A DNA stretch of 64,000 nt from Gammaproteobacteria bacterium (GTDB lineage Bacteria > Pseudomonadota > Gammaproteobacteria > Ga0077536), in contig CAXXLL010000002.1 in the NCBI GenBank assembly GCA_963662545.2, positions 1,696,001-1,760,000 on the forward strand, read 5' to 3'. Positions 7,210-30,608 of the stretch are shown piece by piece (within the stretch, counting starts at the first letter, position 1; the number at the start of each line of letters is the position of its first letter). The translations under genes were made by a program, and so were the position numbers. The notes beneath the pieces were generated by a model. It had not been told where the DNA came from, made no database searches, and was given only the letters and a program-made list of their open reading frames with translations.

Positions 7210-8720
7210 GACGCGCCTCCACCCAACAAGCTCATATAACTGGCGGCGGCCGTGGTCGCCACGTTGGCCCGAGGCAGGTAGGGATAGATATCCAGGTCGA
7301 GTTTGGGCGGGCGTCGCTCGATACGGCACAGCACAAGGTGTTTGACGGCGTCGTAGCCGATCGCGCCCAGGCGCAGGGCGTCCTTCACCGCGCCGTGAAG
7401 CACCTCGAGATCGAAGGTCTCCAGAAGCCGAAGGACCTGGACGTATTGCCGCTTGCCGGCCTTGCCCATGCGCGCCTCCAGGAGACGGCGCAGGGTTGGG
7501 AAGGCATCAGGCAGTTCCCATCCGGCTAGCGGCGCGGCCTGATCCAGGGCACCGATCTTGTGCTCCAGCAAAGGCAGGTAGTGGATCGGATCGAAGACCC
7601 TATCTTCCCGGTCGTAGGAACGGGGGTGTCGGGCAATGATCCCGGCGCCGCAACCGATAACCACCTCGTGGACATAGCCACGGCTCCAGACTTCCTGATG
7701 GCCGTAGGCGACGGGCACGGAATAGTCATTCGTCCGGTAGCGCACCAGGGACAGCGAGTTGACCCGCGTGCCCTGCTTGTCGCACGCGTCGAACGGTGCC
7801 GGCAGTGGCCTCTTCAACGCTTCGCGGTCACGCACAAACCGTTCGCCGATGCTCTCGCGGTGGCCGCGCAGGACGTCGTCTTGCCGTTTGCGGCATTGTT
7901 CCTCCAGGTAAGCGTTGAAGGCGTCCCAGCTCGCGAACCGGGGAAGCGGCGTCATGAAGTTCCGTCGGGCGTAGCCAACCACCCCCTCAACATTGCCTTT
8001 GTCGTTGCCCTTGCCGGGACGGCCGTAACGGTCCTCGAAGAGGTAATGGGACTGCAGTCCGCTGAACGCTCGCGTTCGTTGTCGCGTGCCATCCGGCAAG
8101 ATGCGCGACACCAGGCACTTGTCGTTGTCGTAGAGAATCGATCGGGGAACACCGCCGAAGAAGGCGAAGATTCTGTTGTGCCCGTCCAGCCAGGCCTCCG
8201 TCGTCGCTGACGGGTAGGCCGCAACGAAGCAGGCATCGCTGTGGGGAAGTGTCATGACGAAAAAATGCGCCCGATACTTGACGCCGGCGATGATCGCATC
8301 CGCCTCGCCAAAGTCCGCTTGAGCATGGCCCGGAGGATGTGACAACGGCACAAACATCTCACGCCGACGAAGGCGCCGTTCCCGAACGTAATCCTTCACG
8401 ATGGTCTCTTTGCCCGTGAAGCCATGTTCGTCGCGAAGGCGCTCGAATATACGCTTCGCCGTGTGGTGCTGCTTACGGTGAACCGTTCGGTCCTCCTCCA
8501 GAATACGGTCGATGATATCCGTGAAGGGGGCCAGTTTCGGGCGTTTCGGTGGCTGGCGTCGCCGATATCCCGGCGGTTCCGAATGCCGCAGCATCTTCCT
8601 CACCGTCTCGCGCGCAATGCCAAACCGACTTGCCGCCTCTCGCTGGCTCAGACCATCAACATGGCAGGCCAGCCGAACGCGCAGATATAGGTCCACGGTG
8701 TACATCCTCCCGCCTTCCAT
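7206..8720 (-). CDS. istA: IstA transposase
   Basis: N-terminal HTH; QADFG, YDND, KGNVEG. Confidence 0.92.
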   Translation of the reverse strand: MEGGRMYTVDLYLRVRLACHVDGLSQREAASRFGIARETVRKMLRHSEPPGYRRRQPPKRPKLAPFTDIIDRILEEDRTVHRKQHHTAKRIFERLRDEHGFTGKETIVKDYVRERRLRRREMFVPLSHPPGHAQADFGEADAIIAGVKYRAHFFVMTLPHSDACFVAAYPSATTEAWLDGHNRIFAFFGGVPRSILYDNDKCLVSRILPDGTRQRTRAFSGLQSHYLFEDRYGRPGKGNDKGNVEGVVGYARRNFMTPLPRFASWDAFNAYLEEQCRKRQDDVLRGHRESIGERFVRDREALKRPLPAPFDACDKQGTRVNSLSLVRYRTNDYSVPVAYGHQEVWSRGYVHEVVIGCGAGIIARHPRSYDREDRVFDPIHYLPLLEHKIGALDQAAPLAGWELPDAFPTLRRLLEARMGKAGKRQYVQVLRLLETFDLEVLHGAVKDALRLGAIGYDAVKHLVLCRIERRPPKLDLDIYPYLPRANVATTAAASYMSLLGGGAS

Positions 8721-8819
8721 CTCAAAAAAGATCGAAGGCTACAGGTGGCAGAGTTTTACTCCGCCCGCGGCTGGGAAATCCCGCCGCTTCCGTGGACTAA
8801 TTTGTCACCGCCGTTCTCA

Positions 8820-8976
8820 CACGCTGACGTTTTGGCCCTGGCCCAGCAACACGTCCGCTTCCCGCAGCTTGTGGATGATCTCTTCGGCGTTGTATCGTTT
8901 CGATGGCACGGTTCAGAACGCCTCTTGCTACCTTTTTATCACTTCAGATCTGGACCAGGAATTCCGGGCAGGGTCA
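8820..8976 (-). mobile_element. IS3-family left-end fragment
   Basis: TGACCCTGCCC end followed by orfA start VPSKRYNAEEIIHKLREADV, cut by IS21. Confidence 0.75.
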
Positions 8977-9048
8977 CTACCATAGCATCGTCGAGAAAAC
9001 CTGACTTTCGATTTCACCCACTTGTCATTAAGGGAACTGGGGAAACCG

Positions 9049-9714
9049 ATGCCGCCGAAGAAAAATAATTCTGACCATGCTCTCGCGGTAATAAAAGCGG
9101 GACTGTCAGCAGTTCCCGGAGTCGGGGGGCCGTTAGCAAGTTTGCTTGGTGACTACGTCCCGACCCACACCGAGAGATCGATAGAAAAAGCAATAGAACT
9201 CCTCGGGAAGCGCCTCGAAGAGCTTGAACAACGTATCGATTTAGAAGCACTCAACAAAGACGACCTCGCAGAGCTATTCAAGTCGTGCTATTTGTCCATT
9301 GTACGAACTCATCGCGAAAGCAAATTAAAGGCGGCTACTTCCATTCTAGCGAATCTCCTCTTGCGAGAAGGTGACCCAGAAAAACTTAGCTACACGGAGT
9401 TAGATCATTTTGCCCGGTGTGTAGAGACACTCTCCAGCGGCGCAGTCGAGGTGCTGGGTGAAGTCGTGTGTGCGGCTGATTCGGCAGGATGCGCGGACTT
9501 GGACACTAAGCCATATGGCATGAACTTTTTTGTTCTTAGCGATCGATTCCCCGAGCACTCACCGCATTTATTGATGGGGCTAGTAGCAGAGTTGGATAGT
9601 GCTAATCTTCTCCATCGCGGCGATGTTCCGTCGATTCAAACTCCAGACTATGGAAACTATCCATTGAACCTCACACCACTAGGGATGCAGTTTGCTCAGT
9701 TTCTCCTTAGGTAG
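9049..9714 (+). CDS. Hypothetical protein (possibly DUF4393/Abi-alpha-like)
   Basis: About 221-aa ORF; N-terminal AVPGVGGPLASLL and C-terminal LTPLGMQF winged-helix-like end. Confidence 0.55.
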   Translation: MPPKKNNSDHALAVIKAGLSAVPGVGGPLASLLGDYVPTHTERSIEKAIELLGKRLEELEQRIDLEALNKDDLAELFKSCYLSIVRTHRESKLKAATSILANLLLREGDPEKLSYTELDHFARCVETLSSGAVEVLGEVVCAADSAGCADLDTKPYGMNFFVLSDRFPEHSPHLLMGLVAELDSANLLHRGDVPSIQTPDYGNYPLNLTPLGMQFAQFLLR

Positions 9715-9748
9715 AGCGACACAACACCACACAGGATCTTCGTACGAT

Positions 9749-10317
9749 TTACTCGCCGGTCGCCGCCTCGCCTACCACCAGCCCGGATAACCCCGTCGCC
9801 TTCCCAACATCCATCCCACCGGCAACCAGCTCTTGGAATGCTTGCGCACGCCCGGCAAGATCGTGCATGTACAGCTGATCGAAGTTCAGCGCGATCTCGG
9901 TGTCCAACTTGGCCGACAACTCGGCCGCTAACATCTTCCTCAACGACCTTACCGTGCCATGCAAAAACACCCGTTGCGCTTCGCTCTTCGATGTACCGTC
10001 ACTGTCATCGAACATCGCAACGGAACATCCACACGCGGCCAACACGGTCGCGAATGTTTGCTTTGCGATCATCGTCATCGCTTCGGGCGGTTGCGGCCCG
10101 AGTCGCGACGCTTGCCAATCGCGTTGCGGTGCCGACGCGCCCTCACAATATCAGCCTTGAGCGCGGCGAGCGGATCATCGTCGCCGCCGGTGCCGCCGTC
10201 TTGCGGGATCGCGAGTAGTTGCGCGAGCGGCCCTTGCGCTTCGACTAGTCTTACACCAGCGTCGCTAAAGTCGCCGCCGCTATCGCGCTTCGCAGTTTTC
10301 GCCCACGGCCATCTCAT
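9749..10317 (-). pseudogene. Remnant of a phage/satellite portal-like gene
   Basis: MRWPW start and C-terminal ...DLAGRAQAFQELVAGGMD...; middle missing or frameshifted. Confidence 0.55.
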
Positions 10318-17458: not shown

Positions 17459-19080
17459 TATTGTGTTGAAAAACGTCGGTTGAAACCGGAGTTGCACGTG
17501 AGATGCTGGAAGTTCGTCGGGTTAGCGAACCCGTTTTGGGTTTGTTCGTCGGCTCGGTGGCCGATTGTTGTTGGTTATCGGGTCAAATCCGTTAAGCGAG
17601 CACACCCATCCCACAGGGTGGCGAGCGACTTACCAGTTTGGCGAGCTTTCGAAGGTTCTGGGCAGTCGCGGCTAACAGAAACTCATCCTGTGCGCCGCTC
17701 AAGCCGCGTAATCGCAGGCGGTCCAGTTTCAGAATGCGCTTGAGATGCGCGAACAACATCTCGACCTTCTTGCGGTCGTTGCGTGACTGCGCGTAAGCCT
17801 CGGTGGTTGCGAGTGCCCGGACCCGGTCACGAGCGTCCTCGTGAATAGAGCGGTGGATCTTTCGAGCCGGTTCCTTCGGGCAGCACTGGTCTTTCAACAA
17901 GCAGTGGCCACAGTCGGATTGGCTCGCACGATAGATGATGGTGTTGGCTTTCGTGACACCGGTACGCTTGTTTTTGAACTGGCGTCGATTGCGCCTGAGC
18001 GACTTGCCGTCTGGACACAGATAACAGTCCGCTTCAGGCTTCCAGGTAAACTCAGAGCGACCGAACTGACCCTCCTTGCCCGCGGATTTATCCATCACCG
18101 GAACGTGTGGGGTAATTTGTTTCTCTTCAACTAACCAGCCGAGCATCTGTGCATTGCCGTACGCCGTGTCACCGGCGAGGTGCTCAGGTTTAACCCCGAA
18201 ACGTTTCTCAGTGTGGTCAATCATCGTACGGGCTGCTTGTGCCTCCTCGCTCAGCGTGGACGGCGAGGCTTCGACACCAACGATAATCGCCGAGTCGATG
18301 TCGATAAGATAGTTAGTCGAATAGGAGTAGTTCGCTGGCCCGCCGGGCGCCGAGGTCCAACACGATGCCGGGTCGGTCAGTGAAATCGCTTTGCGTGTTG
18401 CTTCATGGGCACGCACCACCTGCTCATCATTATCCAGTGCGTCGAGATACTCGCGTACCGCTCGGGTCTTGCGTCCTGGTCGTTCCCACTTGATGCCTTC
18501 CTTACCCGAGAACCCACGTTTACGATTTGCGTCGGCCTTAATGAGGCTCGCGTCTACCGCGAAACCTTCGCCTCCCACCAACCCTTCAGCCATACAACGC
18601 TCAACCACCGACTCAAACACGAACCGAAACAGCTCACAATCGCGGTACCGGCCATGCCGATTCTTCGAAAACGTCGAGTGCTCGGGCACCTGGTCTTCCA
18701 GACCCAGCCGACAGAACCAACGATAGGCCAAATTAAGATGAACCTCTTCGCACAGCCGGCGCTCCGAGCGGATACCAAAGCAGTAACCCACCAGCAGCAT
18801 GCGAATCATCAACTCCGGATCAATCGAAGGACGACCCATGTCACTATAGTAAGGTGCGAGGTGTTGACGTATCTGGCTGAAGTCGAGGAAGCGGTCAAGC
18901 GCACGCAGTACATGCTTCTCAGGCACGTGCTGCTCAATGCAGAACTCATAAAACAGTTGATTTTGACCCGCCGGCAGTCGTCCCATCATCGACGCGTCTC
19001 TCCGCGAAAAGGGGTACGCGGGATCTGATCAATGAATTGCCCGATAGTTCCCTGTTGTGAGCGACTTTTTCAACACAATA
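17459..19080 (-). mobile_element. IS1182-family element with 4-bp TSD ATCC
   Basis: IR TATTGTGTTGAAAAA at both ends; ATCC at 17455-17458 and 19081-19084. Confidence 0.92.
17592..18989 (-). CDS. IS1182-family transposase
   Basis: GRPSIDPE, AVDASLI, GDTAYG, RKKVEMLFAHLK. Confidence 0.92.
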   Translation of the reverse strand: MMGRLPAGQNQLFYEFCIEQHVPEKHVLRALDRFLDFSQIRQHLAPYYSDMGRPSIDPELMIRMLLVGYCFGIRSERRLCEEVHLNLAYRWFCRLGLEDQVPEHSTFSKNRHGRYRDCELFRFVFESVVERCMAEGLVGGEGFAVDASLIKADANRKRGFSGKEGIKWERPGRKTRAVREYLDALDNDEQVVRAHEATRKAISLTDPASCWTSAPGGPANYSYSTNYLIDIDSAIIVGVEASPSTLSEEAQAARTMIDHTEKRFGVKPEHLAGDTAYGNAQMLGWLVEEKQITPHVPVMDKSAGKEGQFGRSEFTWKPEADCYLCPDGKSLRRNRRQFKNKRTGVTKANTIIYRASQSDCGHCLLKDQCCPKEPARKIHRSIHEDARDRVRALATTEAYAQSRNDRKKVEMLFAHLKRILKLDRLRLRGLSGAQDEFLLAATAQNLRKLAKLVSRSPPCGMGVLA

Positions 19081-19129
19081 ATCCGACTCCCGTCATTCAG
19101 CCAGGATGGTATTTCCGCACTTGGAAATA

Positions 19130-20516
19130 GAGTTATTGTCAAAAGTGGTGTTCAGGCGGTTGAATCAAGCGGCGACCTGATTGACCCTTGTCACCTCGAT
19201 ACCATCTTCAAATTTAACTCCAGTAATCACCTTGGCCAGATAGTCGAATCCACGTAGGCGTCGCCAATTCTTCTGCGCACACCGCCCCAGCTTGAACATC
19301 ATATGGAGCATGCCGTCCCGAGAGAGACAGCCCTTGGAGCGCCGGGTCCGGTGCCGGATCGTAGCGAAGGTGGATTCAATCGGATTGCTCGTGCGAATGC
19401 TTTGCCAATGCGGTGCCGGAAAATCATAGAACACCAGCAACTCCTCACGGTCTTTCTGTAGGCACAGGGTCGCCTTGGGATACTTCGGTTCATAGGTCTT
19501 GAGGAACAGCTCGAACGCCTTCTCGGCGTCGGCCTTTGTCGCGGCCTGCCAGATCGCGTGCAGGGCTTGCCTGGCTTTGGCCTGTGCCGACTTCGGTAGG
19601 CAGTTCAGCACCGTTCATCGTCTTGTGCATCCAGCAGCGTTGCTGGCGGGTCTCACCGTAGACTTCCTCCAGTGCGGCCCAGAAGCCCATGGCACCGTCC
19701 TCGATCGCCAGCTTGGGAATATTCATCCCGCGTGACTTCAATTTCAGCAACACCTCGCGCCAGCTCTGCGTGGACTCCCGCACACCATCCTCCATCGCCA
19801 AAAAACGCTTCTCACCTCGCGCATTTACGCCGATCACCACCAACGCACACAGCTTCGTGTGCTCCGCCCGCAGGCCACTGTAGACACCGTCCGCCCACAC
19901 ATACACCCAGCGGTCTTGGTCCAATCGCCCCTCGCACCAGTCGCGGTATTCTTGCGCCCACACCTGCTTCAAGCGCGACACTGTGCTCGCCGACAGGCCC
20001 TTCGCCTGCGGCCCCAACAAAACTTCCAGCGCAGCGCCCATTTCGCCACTGGAAACGCCCTTCAAATACAGCCACGGCACGGCCGCCTCCAAGGTTCTTG
20101 TCTTGCGCACATACGGCGGCACCAGCGCTGAACGGAAGGTCACCGGCTCGCCGAGCTTCGAACGAACCTTCGGTATCCTCACCGTCACCGGCCCCAAGCC
20201 CGTCTGCAACTGTCGCTCCGGCAAATAGCCGTTCCGAACGACACCCGCTTTGTCGTCCGCCGTGCGATGGCTTGAATACTGCGCCAAATACTCTGCCAGC
20301 TCGCTTTCAACTGCTCGCTCAATCAGCGCCCGTGCACCGTTTCTCAAAACCTCCGTCAACGGATCTGAAATTCCTCCTCGACCTGATATTTCAACAACGT
20401 TACTCTCTCTCATGGTGGCGTATCCTCTTTGGTTGGCTTGCTGCTTGGTAACAACATTTCAACCAGATACGCCGCCTTTCTTCAACTATCTCAAACACCA
20501 GATTCCGTTATAACTC
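19130..20516 (-). mobile_element. IS256-family element; transposase (19165-20413) frameshifted near 19615
   Basis: GAGTTAT...ATAACTC ends; RNGY, WADG, QRCWMHK and RTSNPIES motifs. Confidence 0.88.
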
Positions 20517-20974
20517 TGTCGATCACGAAGGGGAGGTGCTCGAAGTTTTTGCCACGAAACAGCGGGGTCGCAAGGCTGCACTGAGGTTTCTGAAACGCGC
20601 AATGAAGCGCTACGGCCGGCCAAAGGTGAGCGTGACGGACCGGCTCAAATCATACCGGGCTGCGATGAATGTGATCGGCAATGCCGCCGCTCAGACTTGC
20701 GGTCAGTGGCTCAACAATCGAGCAGAAAACTCACACCAGCCGTTCCGGCGACGGGAAGGGGCAATGGCCAGGTTCAGGGGCATCAAGACCCTGCAGAAAT
20801 TTGCTGCTGCCCACGCCTCGATCCACAATCATTTCAATCAGGAACGTCATCTTTATAACCGCGAAACCTTCAAACTCAATCGCTCCGCCGCTTTGGCCGA
20901 GTGGCGTCGACTTGTAGCCTGAGAGACCTCGATTGTTGGCTCTACTGCTCCGAGCAAGTTAGTCTGACAATGCC
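20517..20974 (+). mobile_element. IS6-family 3' half plus right IR
   Basis: VDHEGEVL...WRRLVA; ends in TCTGACAATGCC. Confidence 0.85.
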
Positions 20975-21343
20975 ATTGGGTGTGATGGACGAGGGGATGG
21001 TCGTGCCGGATCGTGACCAGACGACACGGCCACGGCGAAGGTGGAAATGGCTCCGGCAGCCGCGCGTCCGCCAGACGGAAGGGTGCAACGAGACGGAGCC
21101 GCTGAAGTGCCGGGTGGCGCGCCAGCTCGGGGAATCGTCGGGGACGAGGCTGAGCTGGATGGTGGCGCCGCAGCCGCAGGGGCAGAGCATGGCGGCGGAC
21201 CACGGCCGCGGCCCGTCGCCGACCAGATAGAGCCGGCGAGGTTCGAGCAGATCGGGCACGTCCTCGACGGGTTCGGTCGCGAAATTCGGCCGGAGCCCCG
21301 AACGCTCTACCAGCCGCCACCACAGGTTCGCGAGAGCGGTCAA
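20942..21343 (-). CDS. DUF6527-family protein (last codons supplied by IS6)
   Basis: CPCGCG...SLHPSVW...GCRSHF...GRVVW signature; TTG start overlaps the E1 stop. Confidence 0.85.
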   Translation of the reverse strand: MTALANLWWRLVERSGLRPNFATEPVEDVPDLLEPRRLYLVGDGPRPWSAAMLCPCGCGATIQLSLVPDDSPSWRATRHFSGSVSLHPSVWRTRGCRSHFHLRRGRVVWSRSGTTIPSSITPNGIVRLTCSEQ

Positions 21344-22737
21344 GCGGCCTCCCTGGCAACGCTGAGTTCGGCCCAGTCGAGCAGTGGCGAGATGTCGCCC
21401 CGGCCGACGTACCGGGCTAGTACCGGGCAGGGGTCGCCGTCGCCTTCGTGTTCGTAGATGCCGTGGCTGAGGCTGAGTCGATGGACGGCGTACTCGGCGT
21501 TGGGATCCAAGCGGTACGGGTGCAAGCGGGCGAGAAACTCATTGACGGCGAGGCTCGCGAGCAGGACGTTGAGCTGCACCACGGCGGGCCGGTCCTCGTC
21601 GACGCCGCGGATGTAGCCGTCGTCGAGCAGGGCTCGGTAGGCGGCCGGATCGGTGCGGTAGAGCCCCGCTGCGCGCACCTGGTCCATGGTGTAGACGTGC
21701 CTGCTCAGCAGACTCGAGCCGCCGGGCTGGAGGTAGTGCACGGTACCGCACACCTGGTCGACGCCGCCGTGGCCGTCGGCCTCGAGCTTCACGCCGAGAT
21801 CGAAGTAAGGAATCAGGTAGAAGGTCGCCAGCTTGTTGAGGAGGTGGCGGCCGTCGATCGAGTCCATGCAGCCGAAGACGACGTCGCAGGTCGCGACGGC
21901 GCGCACGATGTCGGCGTCGAAAAGGCTTCGGGGATGGGTGTCGACCCGGGTGCCGAGTCCCATGGCCCGGATCGCACGGGCGGCGACGTCGACCTTGAGC
22001 CGTCCTTGCCGCGCATCCTCCATGGTGGCGTTGAGGATGCGGTTGAGGTTCTTCTCCTCGACGCGGTCCGGATCGACGAGCACCAGTTCGCCCACGCAGT
22101 TGCGGGCGAGCTGCTCGATCAACGGGCTCCCGGTTCCGGAACAGCCGACAACGGCGATGCGCAGGCGACGGAGACGGTCGTAGGTGCCGGCACCGAAGGT
22201 CTGGGCGATGCGGCGGCCGAACTCAGGTATGCTGGTCGTCGGCGATGCGGCGGGCCACAATGCCAGGTCGTCGCCGACGACGTTGACCGCGTGGAGCGGG
22301 TGGAAGCGGCCACGCTCGTCGACGAGTCTGCCGATCATGCGGCCGTCTTCGAACATGAGCGCGCTGCCGTGCGGCCCGGCGTCCGTCCAGGCGTGGACGG
22401 AGGGAAAGAGCTCGCGGTCGGCGCGGTCATCGATGCGGGAGAAAGGCGACGGGAGACGGTGGCCGTGCACCTTGACGACGGCGAGGCCGTGCCGGTCGGC
22501 CTGGGCGAGCACCGGTGGCAGCACCTTCGTCGGCCAGGTGACGCGTGTAGGCGTGCGCACGGAGCAGACGTGGTGAGGCACGGGGACGAGTTCGCGGACC
22601 AGCAGACGGTGTCGCTGGGCGGCTCGCCGGTGGCCGCACAATGCGAAGGCGACGGCCTCGCAGCCGTCGCCGGGGAACAGGTGGCGCTGCAGATCGGCGT
22701 GCTGGGGGCCGGTGAGCGTCAGGGTGGCGGTGCTCAC
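21340..22737 (-). CDS. JAB-peptidase/ThiF (E1) fusion protein
   Basis: GTG start at 22737; N-terminal E...HGH-x6-S-xx-D JAMM-like motif; ThiF motifs VGCSGTGS, DPDRVEEKNLNR and GCMD. Confidence 0.88.
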   Translation of the reverse strand: MSTATLTLTGPQHADLQRHLFPGDGCEAVAFALCGHRRAAQRHRLLVRELVPVPHHVCSVRTPTRVTWPTKVLPPVLAQADRHGLAVVKVHGHRLPSPFSRIDDRADRELFPSVHAWTDAGPHGSALMFEDGRMIGRLVDERGRFHPLHAVNVVGDDLALWPAASPTTSIPEFGRRIAQTFGAGTYDRLRRLRIAVVGCSGTGSPLIEQLARNCVGELVLVDPDRVEEKNLNRILNATMEDARQGRLKVDVAARAIRAMGLGTRVDTHPRSLFDADIVRAVATCDVVFGCMDSIDGRHLLNKLATFYLIPYFDLGVKLEADGHGGVDQVCGTVHYLQPGGSSLLSRHVYTMDQVRAAGLYRTDPAAYRALLDDGYIRGVDEDRPAVVQLNVLLASLAVNEFLARLHPYRLDPNAEYAVHRLSLSHGIYEHEGDGDPCPVLARYVGRGDISPLLDWAELSVAREAA

Positions 22738-22742
22738 GGATG

Positions 22743-23426
22743 TCAGGCCCTGCCGACTTCGCGGGCGAACCAGTGCTCGACCAGGCCGAAGTGGGTGGCG
22801 AGATTGTCGACGCCGGGACGCCACGGGTTCTCGCCGGTGCGGTGGCGGCTCCAGCGCTGCCACTGCCAGCCGTCGAAAGCGTCGTTCGAGATGGCGGCGA
22901 TGGGCCTTCCGTCGGCGCGCGCGAGTCCCGGGTGGACGTAGACCATGTCGATCTGTGTGTCCGGGTAGCCGGACTCGATACGGACGTTCACGTCGGCTTG
23001 ATGGCACTGGTAGCCGGGCGGGATGGGAAAGTCGTATAGGACGACCCGCAGGACGCCGCCTTCGGCAACGAGCTCGAACCGGTGCGGCGAGCCCTCGAGC
23101 CACTCGAGGTCCTCCTCGGGTAGGACGAACTCCCGGCGTCCGCCGAAGCCCTCGGTCTGGTCGAGCGGCAGGGTCACGAAGCGCTCGACGCCGGGCTTGC
23201 TGAGGTCGATCTTCTCGTCGAGATCGAGCCGGTCCGGATGCCCGCCCTTCACCTTGAGATAGATGCCGAAGCGCTCGGCCGGCTTCTTGCCGGCGAGTTC
23301 GAGGAGCTCGCGCCCGGTCATGAGCGGGACGGGAGCCTCGAAGAAGTCCTTGTCGATCTGGACTTTGAAGTGCTGGTCGGGAACGGCGATGGTGTCGCCG
23401 GGCTTGTCGTTGCGATCCTTGGTCAT
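22743..23426 (-). CDS. Multiubiquitin (Ubl) plus prokaryotic E2 (family E-like) fusion
   Basis: Ubl motif TGRELLELAG ending in DQTEG; E2 motifs PPGY, GYPDTQIDM, WQRWSRH and W-x-P-x-x-D. Confidence 0.85.
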   Translation of the reverse strand: MTKDRNDKPGDTIAVPDQHFKVQIDKDFFEAPVPLMTGRELLELAGKKPAERFGIYLKVKGGHPDRLDLDEKIDLSKPGVERFVTLPLDQTEGFGGRREFVLPEEDLEWLEGSPHRFELVAEGGVLRVVLYDFPIPPGYQCHQADVNVRIESGYPDTQIDMVYVHPGLARADGRPIAAISNDAFDGWQWQRWSRHRTGENPWRPGVDNLATHFGLVEHWFAREVGRA

Positions 23427-23488
23427 GGGTCGGTTCCTTCGGTTGTTGGCTGCGGTCCTACCCCCTTATGCTGGCGAGAGCGGGCGTC

Positions 23489-23527
23489 GCGGACACGGGG
23501 GCACTTTTTTTTCGTGGCGATGTCCGC
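23489..23527. promoter_or_regulatory. Inverted repeat GCGGACA-N25-TGTCCGC in the divergent intergenic region
   Basis: Seen directly between the two divergent units; function inferred. Confidence 0.4.
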
Positions 23528-23581
23528 AGACAGGCGTTTGGTGCGCATTGGAGGAGTAGGAACGGACCGCAAGCAGTCGCA

Positions 23582-24160
23582 ATGGGGCTAGTGCAACGGA
23601 AAATGGCGACGCCGAAAGAGTGCGCTGCAGCGCTGCGGAAGCTCAGCGATAAGGATTTAGGGCGACTGGACAAGGCGGCGCAGCTACGCGCGACAGGGTT
23701 GGCGAACGTGGAAGGACGCGACCTACGGAACGAGGCGATCGCGCGGATGCTGGAAGGGCGGCGGCAGTGGCCGCAGGGCGTGGCGCTGGACGTTTTCCTG
23801 CTGGAGACGATGCGAAGCATCGCTAGTGATTATCGGCGGCGGCAGAAATCGGCGCGGGTGGTCGCGGAGTCCGAGGTCCGGGCGGATTCGGAGACCGGCG
23901 ACGGCGCGATAGCAACGGCGGGGGACGTGTCGATGGCGCCGGAAGCCCGGACAGCCGCGGCGGAAACGCTAGCGCGGATCGACTCGCTGTTCAGTGAAGA
24001 CGCCGACGCGCAGGCGGTCATCGCCGGCAAGGCAAAAGGCATGTCACCGGCCGAAATTCAGAAGGAGCACGCGATGGACGAGACAAGATACGCGACGACC
24101 CTGCGCCGGATCCGGCGCGGCGTGGCTGGCTTGTCCACAGAAGGAGGGGAGCAAGCATGA
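23582..24160 (+). CDS. Sigma-70/ECF-like factor
   Basis: Region 2-like DLRNEAIARMLEGRRQW; region 4 HTH GMSPAEIQ...LRRIRR. Confidence 0.7.
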   Translation: MGLVQRKMATPKECAAALRKLSDKDLGRLDKAAQLRATGLANVEGRDLRNEAIARMLEGRRQWPQGVALDVFLLETMRSIASDYRRRQKSARVVAESEVRADSETGDGAIATAGDVSMAPEARTAAAETLARIDSLFSEDADAQAVIAGKAKGMSPAEIQKEHAMDETRYATTLRRIRRGVAGLSTEGGEQA

Positions 24161-24543
24161 GCGAAAAGCGGAACGCGCTCGAGCGTCTCGAGGCGCTGTT
24201 GAGGGGTCTCGAAGACGAGGTGATGCGCAGTGAAGGGTGCGTCGGCACGGACGTGGCGGCGATGAGGGCAGAGATCGAGGCGCTGATCGAGAAGCATGTC
24301 GGCGCCACGGGGTCGGCGGAAGCTCCGGTGTCTCGGACGGGAGACGCCAAGGGCAAGGTGAGCGGCGTCGTAGAACTGCTCGGCCGGTGGGCCGGGATGG
24401 GCCAGAGCGGAGTGCGGGGGGCGCTGGCGCCGAGGGTGAGGATGGCGTTCTCCGGAACGAAGCCGAAGCAGGACGATCGGGGGAGGGGGCACCCGAGGGG
24501 CGTCGGCGATGGCGGGGACCGCCAGGGGGAAAAGGAGGACTAG
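24157..24543 (+). CDS. Small hypothetical protein coupled to the sigma gene (anti-sigma-like?)
   Basis: ATGA overlap; helical N-terminus. Confidence 0.55.
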   Translation: MSEKRNALERLEALLRGLEDEVMRSEGCVGTDVAAMRAEIEALIEKHVGATGSAEAPVSRTGDAKGKVSGVVELLGRWAGMGQSGVRGALAPRVRMAFSGTKPKQDDRGRGHPRGVGDGGDRQGEKED

Positions 24544-24616
24544 CGCGAGTCGACGGGCGCGGTGGTGCGAGCGTGGTCGTTAACGGGATGCGGCAGGTGG
24601 ACGCGGTGGAGCAGCA

Positions 24617-25981
24617 ATGACGTCGGAAGTGGTGGTCATGAATCGGCTGGGCGTAGCGCTGGCCGCCGACAGCGCCGTCACGGTCGACATGGGTCAAAGC
24701 TCGAAGGTGCGGGACTCGGCGCTGAAGGTCTTCATGCTCTCGAAGTACCGGCCCGTGGGCGTGATGGTGTACAACAACGCGTCGCTCCTAGGGGTGCCCC
24801 TGGAGACGGCGATCAAGGTGTTCAGGCAGGTGCTGGGACGGAACGGCTACCCGAAGCTCCACGAGTATGGGGACGCGTTCGTCGAGTACCTGAACTCGAA
24901 CCGCTCGTTGTTCCCGCAGGCGGTCCAGGACAGGTACTTCGTCGCCGCGTTGGAGGTCGAATACGAACGCATAGCGGAGTTCGTGGAGAAGGCGCTCGCG
25001 AGCGGGGTCTACGGTCCGGAGGACGAAGAAAGTCAAGAGACGGCGGTCGAAACGGCGGACCGGATCATCGCTGAACGGCTGGCGTTCTGGGAGAGCCAGA
25101 GCGACGCGGATTACTTTGACGCGGATTACTTTGAGGTGAGCGCAGAGGACGTCGTCGGGCGGAACTCCGGCAACGTGCTCGACGTGATCAATCGGAAGTT
25201 CCTCGGCTGGACCGCCGTGAGCGACGAGGCGCGACAGCACCTGTACGAGATTGCGAAGTACCTCGTGTGTAAGGACCACTTCCCGCCGGATGTTTTGACC
25301 GGTCTCGTGATCGCCGGATTCGGCGGGGAGGAGCACTTCCCGGTGGTTCAGCACTTGGAGTTTGGCGGGATATACGACAACCGGCTCAAGGTGCGGCCGG
25401 CGACTTTGCACGAGGTTTCCGACGACGTACCGTCCGAGGTATTGGCGTTCGCGTACCAGGACATGGTGGACGGGTTTCTCGACGGGATTTCTCCGGATGT
25501 GTTCGAACATCTGGGGGACGCTGCCGCCTTCATCCGGGAGATGCCCGTGGTGGCCCTGGACGCGGTGGAAGGGATTGCGCCGGAAGCTAAGGAAAAAGCA
25601 GCGGAGATCATCCGGCAGGAGAGCGTGAGGAAGGCGGGAGACTTCGCACGCGGCGTTCTTCGCGGTGCGGAGGAGAGACGCGGGCAGATCGAGCAGGCAG
25701 TGGAGGCCTTGTCGCTGAAGGAGCTGGCGCAAGTCGCGTCGACCTTGGTGGGTCTGAGTTCGTTCGAGCATCAGATGTCCCTGGATCGGGAGACGGTCGG
25801 TGGACCTGTGGACGTGGCCGTTATCTCGAAAGGAGACGGATTCATCTGGATGGACCGCAAGCACTATTTTCGGCGGGAGCTGAATAGCCATTTTTTTCGG
25901 AGATATTTCGATGGTGCGGCGCCCGAGAGTGACGATGATCCAGTGGGGGACGACGAGGAGGAGATGTCGGATGGCGAATGA
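24617..25981 (+). CDS. Proteasome-beta-like Ntn-hydrolase protein with a large helical insert
   Basis: M-T1...ALAAD17S...K36VF and C-terminal TVGGPVDVAVIS. Confidence 0.75.
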   Translation: MTSEVVVMNRLGVALAADSAVTVDMGQSSKVRDSALKVFMLSKYRPVGVMVYNNASLLGVPLETAIKVFRQVLGRNGYPKLHEYGDAFVEYLNSNRSLFPQAVQDRYFVAALEVEYERIAEFVEKALASGVYGPEDEESQETAVETADRIIAERLAFWESQSDADYFDADYFEVSAEDVVGRNSGNVLDVINRKFLGWTAVSDEARQHLYEIAKYLVCKDHFPPDVLTGLVIAGFGGEEHFPVVQHLEFGGIYDNRLKVRPATLHEVSDDVPSEVLAFAYQDMVDGFLDGISPDVFEHLGDAAAFIREMPVVALDAVEGIAPEAKEKAAEIIRQESVRKAGDFARGVLRGAEERRGQIEQAVEALSLKELAQVASTLVGLSSFEHQMSLDRETVGGPVDVAVISKGDGFIWMDRKHYFRRELNSHFFRRYFDGAAPESDDDPVGDDEEEMSDGE

Positions 25982-26249
25982 GCGGGACAGAAATAGGCCG
26001 GTGCGGGGGAAACCGGATCGGCCAGGTGGCGAGGGACAGGCGATGGCGTTCGAGAAGCTGGTTCGCAGGGCTCCGCAGTTCCGAGGCTTGGCCAAGGTAG
26101 CTCAAGGCGACGAAGAAAAGCTTACCGCATCACAGAAGAAGTTCCTGAACGAGTTCACCGTGGGTCTGGCCAAAGGCGTGGGGGAGAGCGAATCCCAGCA
26201 GGATGCCACGACTGAAGTGGGAACCGGGAAGCGAACCCAGGGACGCTAG
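25971..26249 (+). CDS. Small hypothetical protein overlapping the end of the Ntn gene
   Basis: 92-aa ORF overlapping the upstream stop. Confidence 0.4.
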   Translation: MANERDRNRPVRGKPDRPGGEGQAMAFEKLVRRAPQFRGLAKVAQGDEEKLTASQKKFLNEFTVGLAKGVGESESQQDATTEVGTGKRTQGR

Positions 26250-26599
26250 TAGCTAGGGTGGTTCGTCGCTCGGCGGGACCGGGTACCGAGTGATTCCGCA
26301 CATGGTGCGGCAAACTGGACGTGTTCGTCCTCCTGACCCGGCGCTGGCGGTGAGACCTTGCAGAACCTAGCGGGCCGCGCTTGGTTGCGGAAACGAAGTC
26401 CGGAAATCACCATATGACTTGACGCGTTTTCCGGGCAATCGGGATGACGACTTGCCGATAGGCTACTCCCGCTCGCGCCCGTCGCGGCCGTACGCCCGCG
26501 AATTCCCCTTGCGAAGTGGGTCCACCGAGCGGCCACCATTGGCTAACGGCGTCAACGTGCCACCTCTTCTGCCTCGTGGGACGGTCGGTCAGGATGGCA

Positions 26600-26818
26600 A
26601 TCAGGAGTGTTTGCCCGCCCTGGTGTACCGTGCCGAGCTGTAGGACACACGGTGAGGTCCAGCCGGCATCGAGGTTCGGCGGGCACGCCGCCGACTCCTT
26701 GAGCGACGTCGTGCAGGCGTACATCGACGCGGGCTTCCGCTGGGTTTGCCTCACCGAACGCATGGCGCCGCACCGGCGGGATCTGATTGCCGCCGACGAG
26801 GCTCCGCTCGATGTGGAG
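26600..26818 (+). pseudogene. PHP/HisJ histidinol-phosphatase N-terminal remnant cut by IS6
   Basis: HAADSLSDVVQAYIDAGFRWVCLTE resembles a PHP domain start. Confidence 0.5.
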
Positions 26819-27623
26819 GGCATAGTTAGAGTAAATCGTCTTGAGCCACCCATTGAGGTCTTCTAGCCTGTAGGAATGCAAAATCGCTTCCGCTATTTCA
26901 ACAGTGCGCCCGAGGTCATTCGCCTCGCGGTGATGTTGTACATCCGCTATCCGCTTTCGTTGCGCCAAGTTGAAGACATTCTGTTCGAACGGGGCATCGA
27001 CATCTGCCACGAGGCGGTGCGGTACTGGTGGAACCGCTTTGGTCCCCTGTTTGCAGCTGAGATCCGGAAACGCCGCGTTCATCATGGATCCTATTCGAAC
27101 TGGCGCTGGCATCTTGATGAGGTGTTTGTCCGGGTTAACGGCGAGATACATTATCTATGGCGCGCTGTCGATCATGAAGGAGAGGTACTCGAGGCTTTTG
27201 CCACGAAACAGCGGGATCGCAGAGCGGCACTGAGGTTTCTGAAACGCGCAATGAAGCGCTACGGCCGGCCAAAGGTGATCGTGACGGACCGGCTCAAATC
27301 ATACCGGGCTGCGATGAATGTGATCGGCAATACCGTCGCTCAGACTTGCGGTCGGTGGCTCAACAATAGAGCAGAAAACTCACATCAGCCCTTTCGGCGA
27401 CAAGAAGGGGCAATGGCCAGGTTCAGGGACATCAAGACCCTGCAGAAATTTGTTGCCGCCCACGCCTCGGTCCACAGTCATCCCAATCAGGAACGTCATC
27501 TTTACAGTCGCGAGGACTTCAAACTCGATCGTTCCGCCGCTTTGGCCGAGTGGCGTCGACTTGCAGCCTGAGAGACCTCAATTGTTGGCTCTACTGCTCC
27601 GATCAACTCAGTCTGACAACGCC
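26819..27623 (+). mobile_element. Full-length IS6-family element (transposase 26876-27571)
   Basis: GGCATAGTTAGA / TCTGACAACGCC ends; 231-aa ORF with WHLDE, VTD and NNRAE. Confidence 0.92.
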
Positions 27624-27816
27624 CGTGGCAGATGTCGATGCCACGTTCGAACAGAATGTCTTCAACTTGGCGCAACGAAAGCGGATAGCGGATGTACAAC
27701 ATCACCACGAGGCGAATGACCTCGGGAGAACTGTTGAAATAACGGCAGGGATTTCGCATCGCTTGAGGCTACGGAACTCCCCTTCCCGGCTCAAGCCGAT
27801 TTACTCTGACAAAGCC
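27624..27816 (-). mobile_element. IS6-family left-end fragment
   Basis: MRNPCRYFNSSPEVIRL...; IR ends at 27816. Confidence 0.8.
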
Positions 27817-27877
27817 CATAGACGCACAAGCCGATGGACGACGTTCCCTCTCTTAATGCACATATATAATCCTCTCC

Positions 27878-28271
27878 ATGGCGGAGGACCCTCAGTTCGG
27901 CATCGGAGACGCGACGTTTCAAGCCGCGGGCGGTGAAGCAGGCATTTGTGCCCTGGTCGATACGTTCTACGACATCATGTCATCCGATCTCCAGTATCGA
28001 ACGATCCGTTCTTGGCATCCCGATGATAACCGCGTTTCCCGAGACAAATTAGCGCGTTTCTTGTGTGGTTGGATGGGTGGGCCACGTCGTTACACTGAGA
28101 AGTATGGCCCGATCAGTATCCCTCGCGTTCACGCACATCTGGACGTCACCGAAAAGGAGCGCGATGACTGGCTCGGCTGCATGGCGAAGGCGCTCGCAAA
28201 ACAGGCGTATTCACCGAGCCTCATTGCCTATCTGTTGGAGCAGTTAGCCGTACCGGCGGAAGCCGTAAGGG
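27878..28271 (+). pseudogene. Group II truncated hemoglobin with its C-terminus replaced by IS6-derived DNA (about 28272-28373)
   Basis: GGEAGICALVDTFY, FLCGWMGGP and HAHL motifs. Confidence 0.75.
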
Positions 28272-28444
28272 GGCTTTGGTCCGTTGTTTGGCGCCGAGAT
28301 CCGGACACGCCGCATTCATCATGGATCCTATTCGAACTGGCGCTGGCACCTTGATGAGGTGTTCGTACGGGTCTGTAAATAGGCATCGAAAACTGACCCA
28401 CTATCGGCGTCGAATATTGACCCACCCAGAAATGGTTTTTTGCA

Positions 28445-29176
28445 TTAATCTGTGTGCTTGATTCTCCAACTGTCGTTGCCTGTTTCGATGATGTCGCAGT
28501 GATGTGTTACTCGATCCAGCAGTGCGGTCGTCATTTTCTTGTCGCCAAAGACCGCTGGCCATTCACCGAAGGCCAGGTTGGTGGTGATGATGACCGAGGT
28601 GCGTTGATAAAGATGAGAGAGCAGGTGGAAAACGAGCTGGCCGCCATTCTTTGAAAATGGCAGATAACCGAGTTCATCGAGCACCACCAGTTCGGTGTAT
28701 TTAGCCAGTCGATCGGCAAGACGACCGCCTTTGCCGTTGAGTTTTTCCTGTTCGAGCGGGTTGGCCAGATCAACCCGGTTGAAAAACTTGGCCCGATAGC
28801 CGGATCGCACAGCCTGCGAGGCGATGGCGGTTGCCAAATGCGTTTTACCGGTACCCGTGCCGCCGACAAAAACAATGTTGCGGTGTTCCTCGATAAAGTC
28901 GCCACCGTAGAGGCTCTTGATCTGCGTCTCTTCGACGGAGAGCTTGTCGAACTCGAAGCTGTCCAGATCTTTGGACACTGGGAATCGTGCCTGCGTCATG
29001 CGGTAACGAATCGATCGTGCCTGACGCTCACGGACCTCGATCTCGAAGAGTTGCTCGATGACGGTCTCGGTCGTTTGCTTACGCTTGCGGGCGGTGGCGA
29101 GGACCTCATCATAGGCTTTCGGGATCGCCACAAACTTCAGGGACTTCATCAGCCCCATCACATAATCACGCGACAT
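28445..29176 (-). CDS. istB: IstB ATPase
   Basis: [24 protein letters not shown]. Confidence 0.9.
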
Positions 29177-30608
29177 GGACCCCCTCCTTCCTGAAGCGGT
29201 CATAACGGGCGCAGTCTGCAACCGGCGGTTCGTTGAGTTCCAGGTGGGCCGGGATGGTGACGATTTCGGGACTGGCTTCCTCATGTTGGCGGGCCAGCAG
29301 GTTGATGATGACGTCGCGGCTCACCGAGCCGTTGCTCCGTGCCTCGTTGCAAGCATCGGCAACGGCATCCAGGCCATAGCCTGGTAGGCAGGCGAGGATG
29401 TCGACCAGTTGCCGATCCCAGTCGGGATAATGCTTCAGCCGCTGCCAGGTGCGATGAATGGAGCGGGGCAGATCCCAGTCCTTGAACGGTGCGCCGTTGC
29501 GTAACGCTCCGGGCTTCTTCTGCAGCACCGGCAGGTAATGCCACGGGTCGAAGATCATTTGATCGCGCTGGAAGCAGCGTGAATGCTGGGCCACGCACTC
29601 GCCACCGTGCATCACCACGATCTTGTCGGCATAGCTTCTGAGCTCAGCGGTCCGACCGGGCGCTTTGCAAGCGACGCTGTAGCGATTGCGGTCAAAACTC
29701 ACCAGCGAGGTTGAACTGACGCGCACGGTACGTTCGGCATAACCGTCAAAGGCCCGTGGCAATGTCAGTAACGAAGGTCGTTCAGACACAAAGACGGACC
29801 ATACTGTCTGATCCTTGAGGACTGGGTGACGCTGATTCTTCACCCACTGCAGGCACTCCGCCCGTAGTGCGTGGTTGAGATCATCGAGGCTCGCGGCTTT
29901 GCGCGTGGGCGTGAACAATCGCCGTCGGACCGTGCGCACCTGGTTCTCCACCTGACCTTTCTCCCAGCCCGCGGCCGGCGTACAGGCCACCGGCTCAAAA
30001 AGGTAATGACTGGCCAGTTCCTCGAAGCGGCGGTTGAAGTCGCGTTCCTTGCCTCGCAGGATGCGGCACACGGCCGTCTTCATGTTGTCGTAAATGCCGC
30101 GCCGGGTGACGCCACCGAAAAACTCGAAGGCTCTGCGATGGGCATCGAACACCATCTCCTGTGACTCGCGAAGATAAGCGACGGTCAGGAACAGTCGGCT
30201 GTGACACAAGCGGAGGTGGGCAATCTTCACGTCGGTCATGGCCCCGGCAAAGACGATCTTCTCGTGGCTCCAGTCAAACTGGAAGGCCTCGCCGGGCTCG
30301 AATACGAGTGGGATGTAGGCGTCGGTAGGACTTCCCTGATGTTCTGCCCGCCAGTTCTTCACAAAACGACGCACGCTATCGTAAGCACCGCGGTAACCTT
30401 CGGCCTGCAGTGCCTCGTAGTAACCTTGCGCTGTACGCCGTTGCTTCAACGGCAGAGGCTGATCGTGCTTCAACAACGTCGTCAATGTATCGATAAACGG
30501 ACCGAGCTTGGGTCGGTGCACCGTAACCGGTCAATCCAGGCCGTTATTCACGGTCTCGGGCAGATGGTTTAGTTTGCCAGGTTTCCCAGTCAATCGGGAG
30601 CTTGGTAA

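Follow-up and report, generated by a model that had tools for sequence, protein, structure and literature searches.

The window analysed here, a 64,000-nucleotide stretch of a gammaproteobacterial genome (GTDB Ga0077536; assembly GCA_963662545.2, contig CAXXLL010000002.1, positions 1,696,001 to 1,760,000), carries at 20942-26249 a set of seven genes that form one self-contained mobile cassette. Three of them, on the minus strand, make up a Type I Bub operon, a known bacterial system for the conjugation of a ubiquitin-like protein (Ubl); the four divergent genes on the plus strand encode a diverged extracytoplasmic function (ECF)-like sigma factor, an anti-sigma-like partner, a presumed protease with the proteasome-beta fold and a small tail protein. 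The Bub operon itself is known; what is new is that it is joined, in a fixed arrangement, to a sigma/anti-sigma pair of ECF-like type and to a proteasome homolog resembling the PMI group (Proteasome homolog with Multiple Insertions). We consider it probable that the cassette is a Bub system under the control of its own sigma/anti-sigma pair, and we favour the view that the proteasome-like protease more likely switches this system on than degrades the proteins it tags.

A first-pass annotation of the window, made from the sequence alone, had read the same seven genes as a possible self-contained tag-and-degrade or tag-and-process system. All seven open reading frames (ORFs) exist, uninterrupted and in two divergent units, and the 155-bp gap it had noted between them is exact, given the sigma start at ATG 23582. 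Its identification of a Ubl-E2, JAB-E1 and DUF6527 operon on the minus strand is borne out by Pfam and by a structural homolog of the JAB part, and its sigma-like gene, proposed as the cassette's own, faces the same bipartite motif as the Bub operon.

Conserved linkage and shared control

The association of the two operons was recovered from either side. Among the best 80 of 450 relatives of the protease, drawn from one-genome-per-species contigs, BubAB, BubCD and BubE accompany the protease in 22 loci and the sigma factor does so in 23, in the same divergent layout. Searching from BubCD instead, the best 80 of 177 loci all hold a complete Type I Bub system, with the protease present in 22 and the sigma factor in 25, and these include nearly all loci with at least 60% BubCD identity. 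The two samples overlap and jointly yield about 29 other genomes with the cassette in three proteobacterial classes, including gammaproteobacterial metagenome-assembled genomes, Sphingomonas, Novosphingobium, Mesorhizobium, Bradyrhizobium, Rubrivivax, Hydrogenophaga and Rhodocyclaceae. The linkage of Bub, sigma factor and protease is thus far beyond chance. The first-pass annotation had proposed a search for such co-occurrence and had held that its idea would fall if the protease gene were not found near other DUF6527 operons and its deletion changed neither conjugate levels nor phenotype; the linkage recurs in both directions, at 22 of 80 loci each way. We found no paper describing the association, although supplementary operon tables of the Bub papers may list such neighbours.

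In a quick IQ-TREE phylogeny of the protease (79 rows, with 8 truncated rows dropped), 23 linked rows fall into one clade of 25-26 with Shimodaira-Hasegawa-like approximate likelihood ratio support of 94-97, and three loci (L098, L099 and L101) form a separate long branch. Three close relatives of the protease appear without Bub; contig ends interrupt two of these loci (L015 and L023), and one, L019, truly lacks it. In the latter (7509-9936), the protease is nested in the Bub-linked clade and stands without Bub or sigma factor behind Nmad2, MazG_C and a UDG-family gene, a nucleotide-modification island. Decayed copies of the cassette occur at four loci (L009, L022, L086 and L137).

The gap between the two operons holds a promoter-like bipartite motif, TGTCCG-N18-GCAT, on each strand: one copy (23468..23495, minus strand) faces bubAB and lies 41 nt before its start codon, and the other (23521..23548, plus strand) lies 33 nt before the start codon of the sigma gene. 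In 25 aligned gaps these are two conserved islands within otherwise diverged DNA. The strict motif is present on the bubAB side in 19 of the 25, on the sigma side in 22 and on both sides in 17, most of the remaining loci being one base off, and it is conserved across alpha-, beta- and gammaproteobacteria. Within the 64-kb window it occurs only twice, both times in the 155-bp gap. No sigma-70-type promoter was found anywhere in 20700-26600, and no terminator within the plus-strand unit.

The sigma gene (23582..24160, plus strand) encodes 192 aa from a start codon that was set by 19 aligned homologs. The sequence matches of the product are weak but point in one direction, to sigma factors. It has no Pfam match and does not reach the curated cut-offs of sigma-70 families; it matches the sigma70-ECF family TIGR02937 with an E of 2e-4 and 20.9 bits, under the cut-off of 42.9. 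Three of its 19 homologs match Sigma70_r2 (best E 4e-5), and its top profile matches in the PDB are sigma-H (3mzy) and ECF SigH, with E of 0.02-0.05. The AlphaFold2 (AF2) model, with a predicted local distance difference test score (pLDDT) of 82.6, shows two helical domains and, between them, a linker of low confidence (residues 93-119), which is the sigma-2/linker/sigma-4 arrangement of ECF sigma factors, and nearly all of its top 30 Foldseek matches are sigma factors, mostly of ECF type, the best with an E of 6e-3. A profile scan for this sigma factor in 400 other Pseudomonadota genomes gave two matches, neither near Bub or the protease, one of them (G094, L166) being a truncated homolog amid insertion sequence (IS) fragments.

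The next gene (24157..24543, plus strand) encodes a protein of 128 aa, and its start overlaps the sigma stop codon (ATGA), so that the two are translationally coupled. In the linked loci it invariably sits between the sigma and protease genes. The protein comprises an N-terminal helical hairpin with a conserved helix (RLDALLxGLEDEVL), a variable middle and a disordered tail with a conserved PRVRMAFSG. Structure prediction, which had been proposed for the complexes of the block, was run for the sigma factor and this partner: the interaction prediction score from aligned errors was 0.83 in each of three runs, compared to 0.02 for the best control, with at least 65% of contacts common to the runs and a partner pLDDT of at least 53. 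The mark applied to such predictions is attained by 58 of 80 solved complexes and by 2 of 110 mismatched pairs; since complexes of sigma and anti-sigma factors have already been solved, the pass may partly reflect likeness to them. In the predicted interface, residues 5-49 of the partner touch both sigma domains, at residues 11-85 and 122-181. Anti-sigma factors typically sit between both sigma domains. The model therefore supports the binding of the sigma factor by the 128-aa protein, which we regard as an anti-sigma-like partner.

The C-terminal motif of the partner tracks the protease found beside it. In alignment A3, [VI][RS]MAF[SK][GSA] is present in all 13 rows linked to the main protease clade and is missing from three rows linked to a peptidase of another type (Peptidase_M78, see below) as well as from two rows of the L098 type.

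Bub operon, protease and tail ORF

The minus-strand operon is a complete, already known Type I Bub system in which all published catalytic residues are conserved. Conjugation of the Ubl to targets, by way of oxyester intermediates, is a predicted function. The first gene, bubAB (22743..23426), encodes one beta-grasp Ubl fused to a serine E2 (Multi_ubiq E 3.7e-13; Prok-E2_E E 9.9e-35). The single beta-grasp domain aligns with residues 155-229 of BubA, which places the predicted C-terminal glycine at G93, the last residue of TEG before FGG. The E2 part matches Citrobacter BubB (PDB 9eav_D, E 5e-20) and retains the S-x-H pair (WSRH; S193, H195) and the upstream Asp of YPDTQIDM, in line with the Ser/His and Asp residues that the preprint describing BubB gives as catalytic (Ye et al., bioRxiv 10.1101/2024.11.21.623953). 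The bubCD gene (21340..22737), a JAB/JAMM peptidase fused to an E1 adenylation domain (ThiF E 7e-30), was first read as an over-extended 587-aa ORF; its likely start is GTG 22737, 5 nt past the bubAB stop. Its JAB domain has no Pfam match and is recognised from the solved structure of Citrobacter BubCD (PDB 9ea4), which the protein matches along its full length (E 5e-78, residues 8-458); the alignment shows conservation of the crossover-loop Tyr (GYIRGV) and of Glu, HxH, Ser and Asp of the JAMM site. Finally, bubE (20942..21343; PF20137, E 8.7e-22) encodes a DUF6527 serine peptidase with a C4 zinc site. Its CPCGCG ... HPS-x6-C-x2-H has the spacing of C57/C59/C61, S92, C99 and H102 in Citrobacter BubE, which are zinc-site and Ser/His residues by the account of the same preprint.

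On the plus strand, the anti-sigma-like gene is followed by a gene for a 454-aa N-terminal nucleophile (Ntn) protein with large helical insertions (24617..25981). The protein has more than 2700 homologs, yet no Pfam (PF00227 included), NCBIfam or PADLOC match, and neither sequence nor profile searches with the family retrieved a proteasome from the PDB. The likeness to proteasome beta subunits that the first-pass annotation had named is borne out by the fold: the AF2 model (pLDDT 76.8) has Anbu as its top Foldseek match (E 6e-5), and VIA-align scores 20S beta subunits at Z 13-14 (root-mean-square deviation 3.5-3.8 A over 172-186 aligned residues), Anbu at 13.3, HslV at 10.9 and BPH at 10.5. 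Residue 2 of the model superposes on the first residue of the mature enzymes, namely beta subunits, HslV and BPH. All full-length homologs, archaeal ones too, carry M-T-x-E...A-x-A-x-D-S with the Thr straight after the Met, and D18, S34 and K37 are invariant across the homologs. Thr2 is the presumed nucleophile, and we equate D18 and K37, by position only, with Asp17 and Lys33 of proteasomes. A search of the ESM Atlas returned unnamed clusters and, at 0.89, a single PF00227 cluster that amounts to no more than a lead, and the family matches phrog_5990, of unknown function, with an E of 2e-88. A search for longer, fused versions of the protease found none, which is weak evidence. In the model, long helical insertions follow the first helix pair and separate later helices. 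Fuchs, Alva and Lupas (2021, PMC8665760) describe proteasome homologs with long insertions after H1/H2 and between H3/H4 (PMI-3/PMI-4) and state that insertions at these sites should hinder ring and double-ring assembly. By this published description, the 454-aa protein is probably a PMI homolog.

The protease gene overlaps by 11 nt the last gene of the operon, a tail ORF of 92 aa (25971..26249, plus strand), homologs of which were recovered at the same position in 8 loci by tblastn and in 11 by profile. A small same-strand ORF of 50-100 aa overlaps or abuts the protease stop in 78 of the 80 genome loci. Among the 55 loci outside the Bub clade (L026-L080), 45 carry members of a single tail family whose motif is Y-x-S-M-x-E-F-E-K-x-F-F-P-K-S ... 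L-G-I-x-L-A-K-E-S-L (for example L029:2004-2183), archaeal loci being among them, and homology between this family and the tail ORFs of the Bub clade is unsupported (hhalign probability about 1%). Small downstream ORFs of several unrelated families accompany at least 33 of 80 viral protease loci (L171-L250), sampled from the IMG/VR contigs in which the family has 106 viral or prophage relatives. The protease and its tail ORF look like a conserved, undescribed two-gene module. The tail ORF at L026:4275-4502 has a sub-threshold match to the ubiquitin-like domain UN_NPL4 (E 0.002, 19 compared to 21.9 bits), which is probably due to chance. PADLOC, a check that the first-pass annotation had also suggested, matched BubCD by generic E1 models alone and gave no match for BubAB, BubE, the sigma factor, the 128-aa partner or the tail ORF.

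Role of the protease

We propose that the Bub operon and the divergent four-gene operon are both driven by the dedicated ECF-like sigma factor encoded in the latter. In the resting state, the 128-aa protein would hold the sigma factor with its N-terminal hairpin wedged between the sigma-2 and sigma-4 domains. A signal, perhaps DNA damage or phage infection by analogy with other Bub regulators, would then let the proteasome-like Thr protease remove the anti-sigma factor by way of its disordered C-terminal half, which carries the conserved VRMAFSG. The freed sigma factor would fire both TGTCCG-N18-GCAT promoters, inducing Bub and amplifying its own operon, and the trio of sigma factor, anti-sigma factor and protease would thereby take the role that falls to CapH+CapP, CapW or CapK+CapS elsewhere among Bub operons. 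We advance the gate function of the protease tentatively, at somewhat short of an even chance.

Sister cassettes with a different protease favour such a protease-gated sigma switch over a tag-and-degrade system. At three more distant Type I Bub loci (L104, L108 and L153), a Peptidase_M78 of the IrrE type stands in the protease slot, behind a homologous sigma factor and partner (Pfam E 1e-16, 1e-15 and 3e-4). According to the preprint of Ye et al., which treats this class of protease at other Bub and CBASS operons, M78 proteases there cleave CapH, and regulators at Bub operons include CapW or CapH+CapP at 219 of 544 and CapK+CapS at 59 of 544 (bioRxiv 10.1101/2024.11.21.623953). A scan with the L104 sigma factor gave just two new loci. 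At L169 and L170, where no Bub was found, the same trio of sigma factor, partner and M78 recurs, the M78 being recognised by tblastn at 53-54% identity to the L104 protein. These trios without Bub within reach (L169:6944-8765 and L170:1198-2932) may represent a portable controller for different cargo. In L169, the ORF divergent from the sigma gene, of 254 aa, was considered as PD-(D/E)xK-like by eye and was set aside, as Pfam found nothing.

The placement of other modules at the same position in other Type I Bub clades likewise favours a regulatory role. Of the 80 Type I Bub loci, six others have a pair of HTH and M78 proteins. In the window itself, Pfam found neither HTH nor M78, and the cassette thus does not carry CapH+CapP. 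In 14 of the 80, an M78-UvrD helicase-PD-(D/E)xK nuclease fusion of about 1143 aa lies upstream of Bub (L102, L105, L106, L116, L119, L124, L131, L133-L136, L138, L140 and L145); this fusion may be a sensor/regulator or an effector. Ten of the 80 have IetA (AAA) and IetS (subtilase) on the same strand, about 2.6-3.8 kb upstream of bubAB (L113, L115, L117, L118, L122, L125-L127, L130 and L150; PADLOC E 3.5e-84 and 3e-46). This AAA and subtilase pair was considered as a degradation module and rejected, PADLOC naming it as the known IetAS defence system, and it was not counted for tag-and-degrade. In addition, the lack of conserved AAA+ genes in the linked loci, the occurrence of the family elsewhere without a Ubl, the 58 of 80 Bub operons without the protease, the M78 in its slot and the tracking of the anti-sigma C-terminal motif with protease type all lead us to favour a regulatory protease.

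Several observations weigh against this interpretation. Every sigma-family score of the sigma factor lies under its curated cut-off, and shared descent alone could explain the correlation between anti-sigma motif and protease type. Genome-wide, the short motif is unspecific, with 54 matches compared to 29 for the reversed control; the regulon of the sigma factor is therefore not definable from the motif, an attempt to derive it by a genome-wide scan was dropped, and the argument rests on position and conservation. Neither sigma factor nor Bub is found at 55 of the 80 genome loci and at all 80 viral loci of the protease, so the family is mostly autonomous and needs no anti-sigma factor to function. 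These autonomous proteases usually have their own small tail ORF, and their neighbours vary, from Eco57I-type restriction-modification and Nmad2/MazG_C/UDG to CODH and ProC. Moreover, the sigma operon contains toxin-like genes at some loci, a Zeta/AAA_33-like P-loop protein in L098, L099 and L101 and Fic/DOC in L092, which suggests that the positions behind the anti-sigma gene may be cargo and not regulator slots. Toxin-like genes inside or just after the sigma operon lie at L098:5364-5987, L099:5375-5998, L101:2321-3058, L096:3531-4316 and L092:3806-4378.

In an alternative reading, the protease and tail ORF are an independent module that has been co-opted, a self-sufficient accessory unit for defence, prophage or stress functions that is simply co-induced with Bub as a second effector and has no biochemical tie to the anti-sigma factor or the Ubl. 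The pair occurs widely by itself, in bacteria, archaea and (pro)phages alike, with one tail family at 45 of the 55 non-Bub loci, the 106 IMG/VR relatives and the phrog_5990 match; its neighbours are often defence-like, such as the Eco57I-type and Nmad2/MazG_C/UDG genes; the L019 protease lies within the Bub-linked clade yet has neither Bub nor sigma factor; and other toxin-like cargo (Zeta-like, Fic) shares the operon at some loci. Against this reading stand the order of sigma factor, partner, protease and tail ORF, strictly kept across three proteobacterial classes, the regulator-type M78 protease that fills the same slot elsewhere, and the anti-sigma motif that follows the protease type. We regard co-option as not likely, although it deserves to be taken seriously.

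The tag-and-process or tag-and-degrade idea holds that the protease degrades or cuts Ubl-tagged proteins or processes the Ubl, as a minimal analogue of the ubiquitin-proteasome system. A proteasome-fold Thr protease that is tightly co-inherited with a complete Ubl/E1/E2 system invites this idea, as do its intact Thr/Asp/Lys active-site pattern and its position behind the same promoter-like motif as Bub, with which it is presumably made; moreover, the preprint describes the targets and purpose of Bub conjugation as unknown (Ye et al., bioRxiv 10.1101/2024.11.21.623953), which leaves room for it. Neighbour clustering, however, revealed no conserved AAA+ unfoldase beside the protease in any linked locus, such as would mark a self-compartmentalising protease with its unfoldase (20S/PAN, HslVU), and no conserved Ubl receptor. 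The helical insertions at H1/H2 and H3/H4 are of the kind that, in the description of Fuchs et al. (PMC8665760), is expected to hinder ring assembly. Furthermore, 58 of the 80 sampled Type I Bub operons do without the protease, the protease family does without a Ubl system at 55 of 80 genome loci and all 80 viral loci, an M78 peptidase replaces it in the sister cassettes, and Ubl processing and deconjugation are already supplied by the JAB part of BubCD and by BubE, as the same preprint reports. We therefore consider this idea unlikely: of the system proposed in the first-pass annotation, the self-contained cassette with its own sigma factor stands, while degradation, given the missing AAA+ and the M78 swap, is not supported in the form proposed. 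In a more specific version, the cassette would be a pared-down bacterial equivalent of the ubiquitin-proteasome system: the conjugation machinery and the protease would be inherited and induced jointly, the protease would act on Ubl-tagged proteins without AAA+, and the insertions and tail protein may serve as tag receptor. This version appears less likely still.

That the two operons are unrelated units juxtaposed by IS activity, a notion fed by the many IS elements of the region, is already refuted by the same seven-gene layout in about 29 other genomes and by the conserved motif in the gap. In the window, the cassette is bracketed by IS6-like direct repeats (20516-20815 and 27165-27464, 93% identical). 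The left one belongs to an IS6-like fragment (20516..20922, plus strand) with a 128-aa transposase C-terminal fragment, and an IS6-like transposase gene of 231 aa (26876..27571, plus strand) bounds the cassette on the right. The surroundings (17592-20413 and 26876-30521) are an IS graveyard. Its members, with families judged by eye from their translations, are a 465-aa transposase of IS5-like type, an IS256-like gene split into parts of 148 aa and 307 aa, copies of IS6-like type and the IstA/IstB pair of an IS21-like element. The first-pass annotation's description of the neighbouring DNA as decayed is partly right, in that the flanks are rich in IS elements and some of the IS ORFs are split. 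The G+C content of the cassette is 0.64-0.68, compared to 0.56-0.59 in the adjoining DNA. The cassette is single-copy in its own 5.58-Mb genome, and no clear copy was found among 40 relatives, the search yielding just two weak partial matches.

Comparison with known systems

Conjugation by Bub systems is proven; the preprint that characterised them describes their biological role, targets and trigger as unknown and could not demonstrate protection from phage (Ye et al., bioRxiv 10.1101/2024.11.21.623953). Where a cassette brings a sigma/anti-sigma switch along, that switch provides an easy way to turn on a native Bub system and seek its targets. With the Type I Bub systems (6E.1 / DUF6527), the minus-strand operon shares the identical gene set and order of BubAB, BubCD and BubE as well as the E2 Ser/His/Asp, the E1 crossover Tyr, the JAMM site and the BubE C4 site and Ser/His dyad. 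It differs in having a Ubl with one beta-grasp domain and in its adjacent regulator: none of the reported types is present, and the operon is instead attached to a sigma/anti-sigma pair with a proteasome-like protease.

The cassette also provides the first conserved gene context for this family of proteasome homologs. About 20 new families of such homologs were described in 2021 without, by the account given of them, a functional clue from gene context (Fuchs et al. 2021, PMC8665760); here there are two context clues, the partnership with a sigma/anti-sigma pair and a Ubl system, and the near-universal small tail ORF. Our protein resembles the PMI-type homologs, as described there, in its proteasome-beta fold, N-terminal Thr, insertions after H1/H2 and between H3/H4, length of about 440 aa and spread over bacteria, archaea and phages, while differing in that one subclade has a fixed gene context and the wider family a tail ORF. 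Compared to the 20S proteasome, HslV, Anbu and BPH, with which it has in common the core fold and a Thr at the mature N-terminus, it carries about 250 extra residues in helical insertions and lacks both an AAA+ partner gene and a propeptide. If the protease does gate the anti-sigma factor, the proteasome fold would be put to a new use here, in a protease dedicated to regulation.

The sigma factor and its partner recall pairs of ECF sigma and anti-sigma factors (sigmaE-RseA, SigW-RsiW, AlgU-MucA and the NepR type) in the two-domain sigma-2/sigma-4 protein, in a co-transcribed and coupled partner that is here predicted to lie between both sigma domains, and in a promoter that is likely auto-regulated; release by proteolysis is a common theme among them. 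In contrast to these pairs, the present sigma factor is very diverged and falls under Pfam and NCBIfam cut-offs, the anti-sigma factor is soluble and has neither zinc nor a transmembrane region, and the operon itself encodes the presumed protease, a proteasome-type enzyme.

Finally, a functional parallel would be the "controllers of adjacent pathways" CapH+CapP, CapW/BrxR and CapK+CapS, of which the sigma/anti-sigma/protease trio would, if the protease gates the anti-sigma factor, form a fourth class, and a fourth kind of Bub regulator. Like these controllers, the trio lies divergent from or upstream of an immune-type operon; it likely also follows their logic, in which a signal-activated modifier frees a transcription factor, and an M78 protease like that of CapH+CapP is used even in sister cassettes of the present type. 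Unlike them, the trio would exert positive control through a sigma factor and not act through a repressor, the protein held in check would be an anti-sigma factor, and the protease has the Ntn/proteasome fold in place of a metalloprotease fold.

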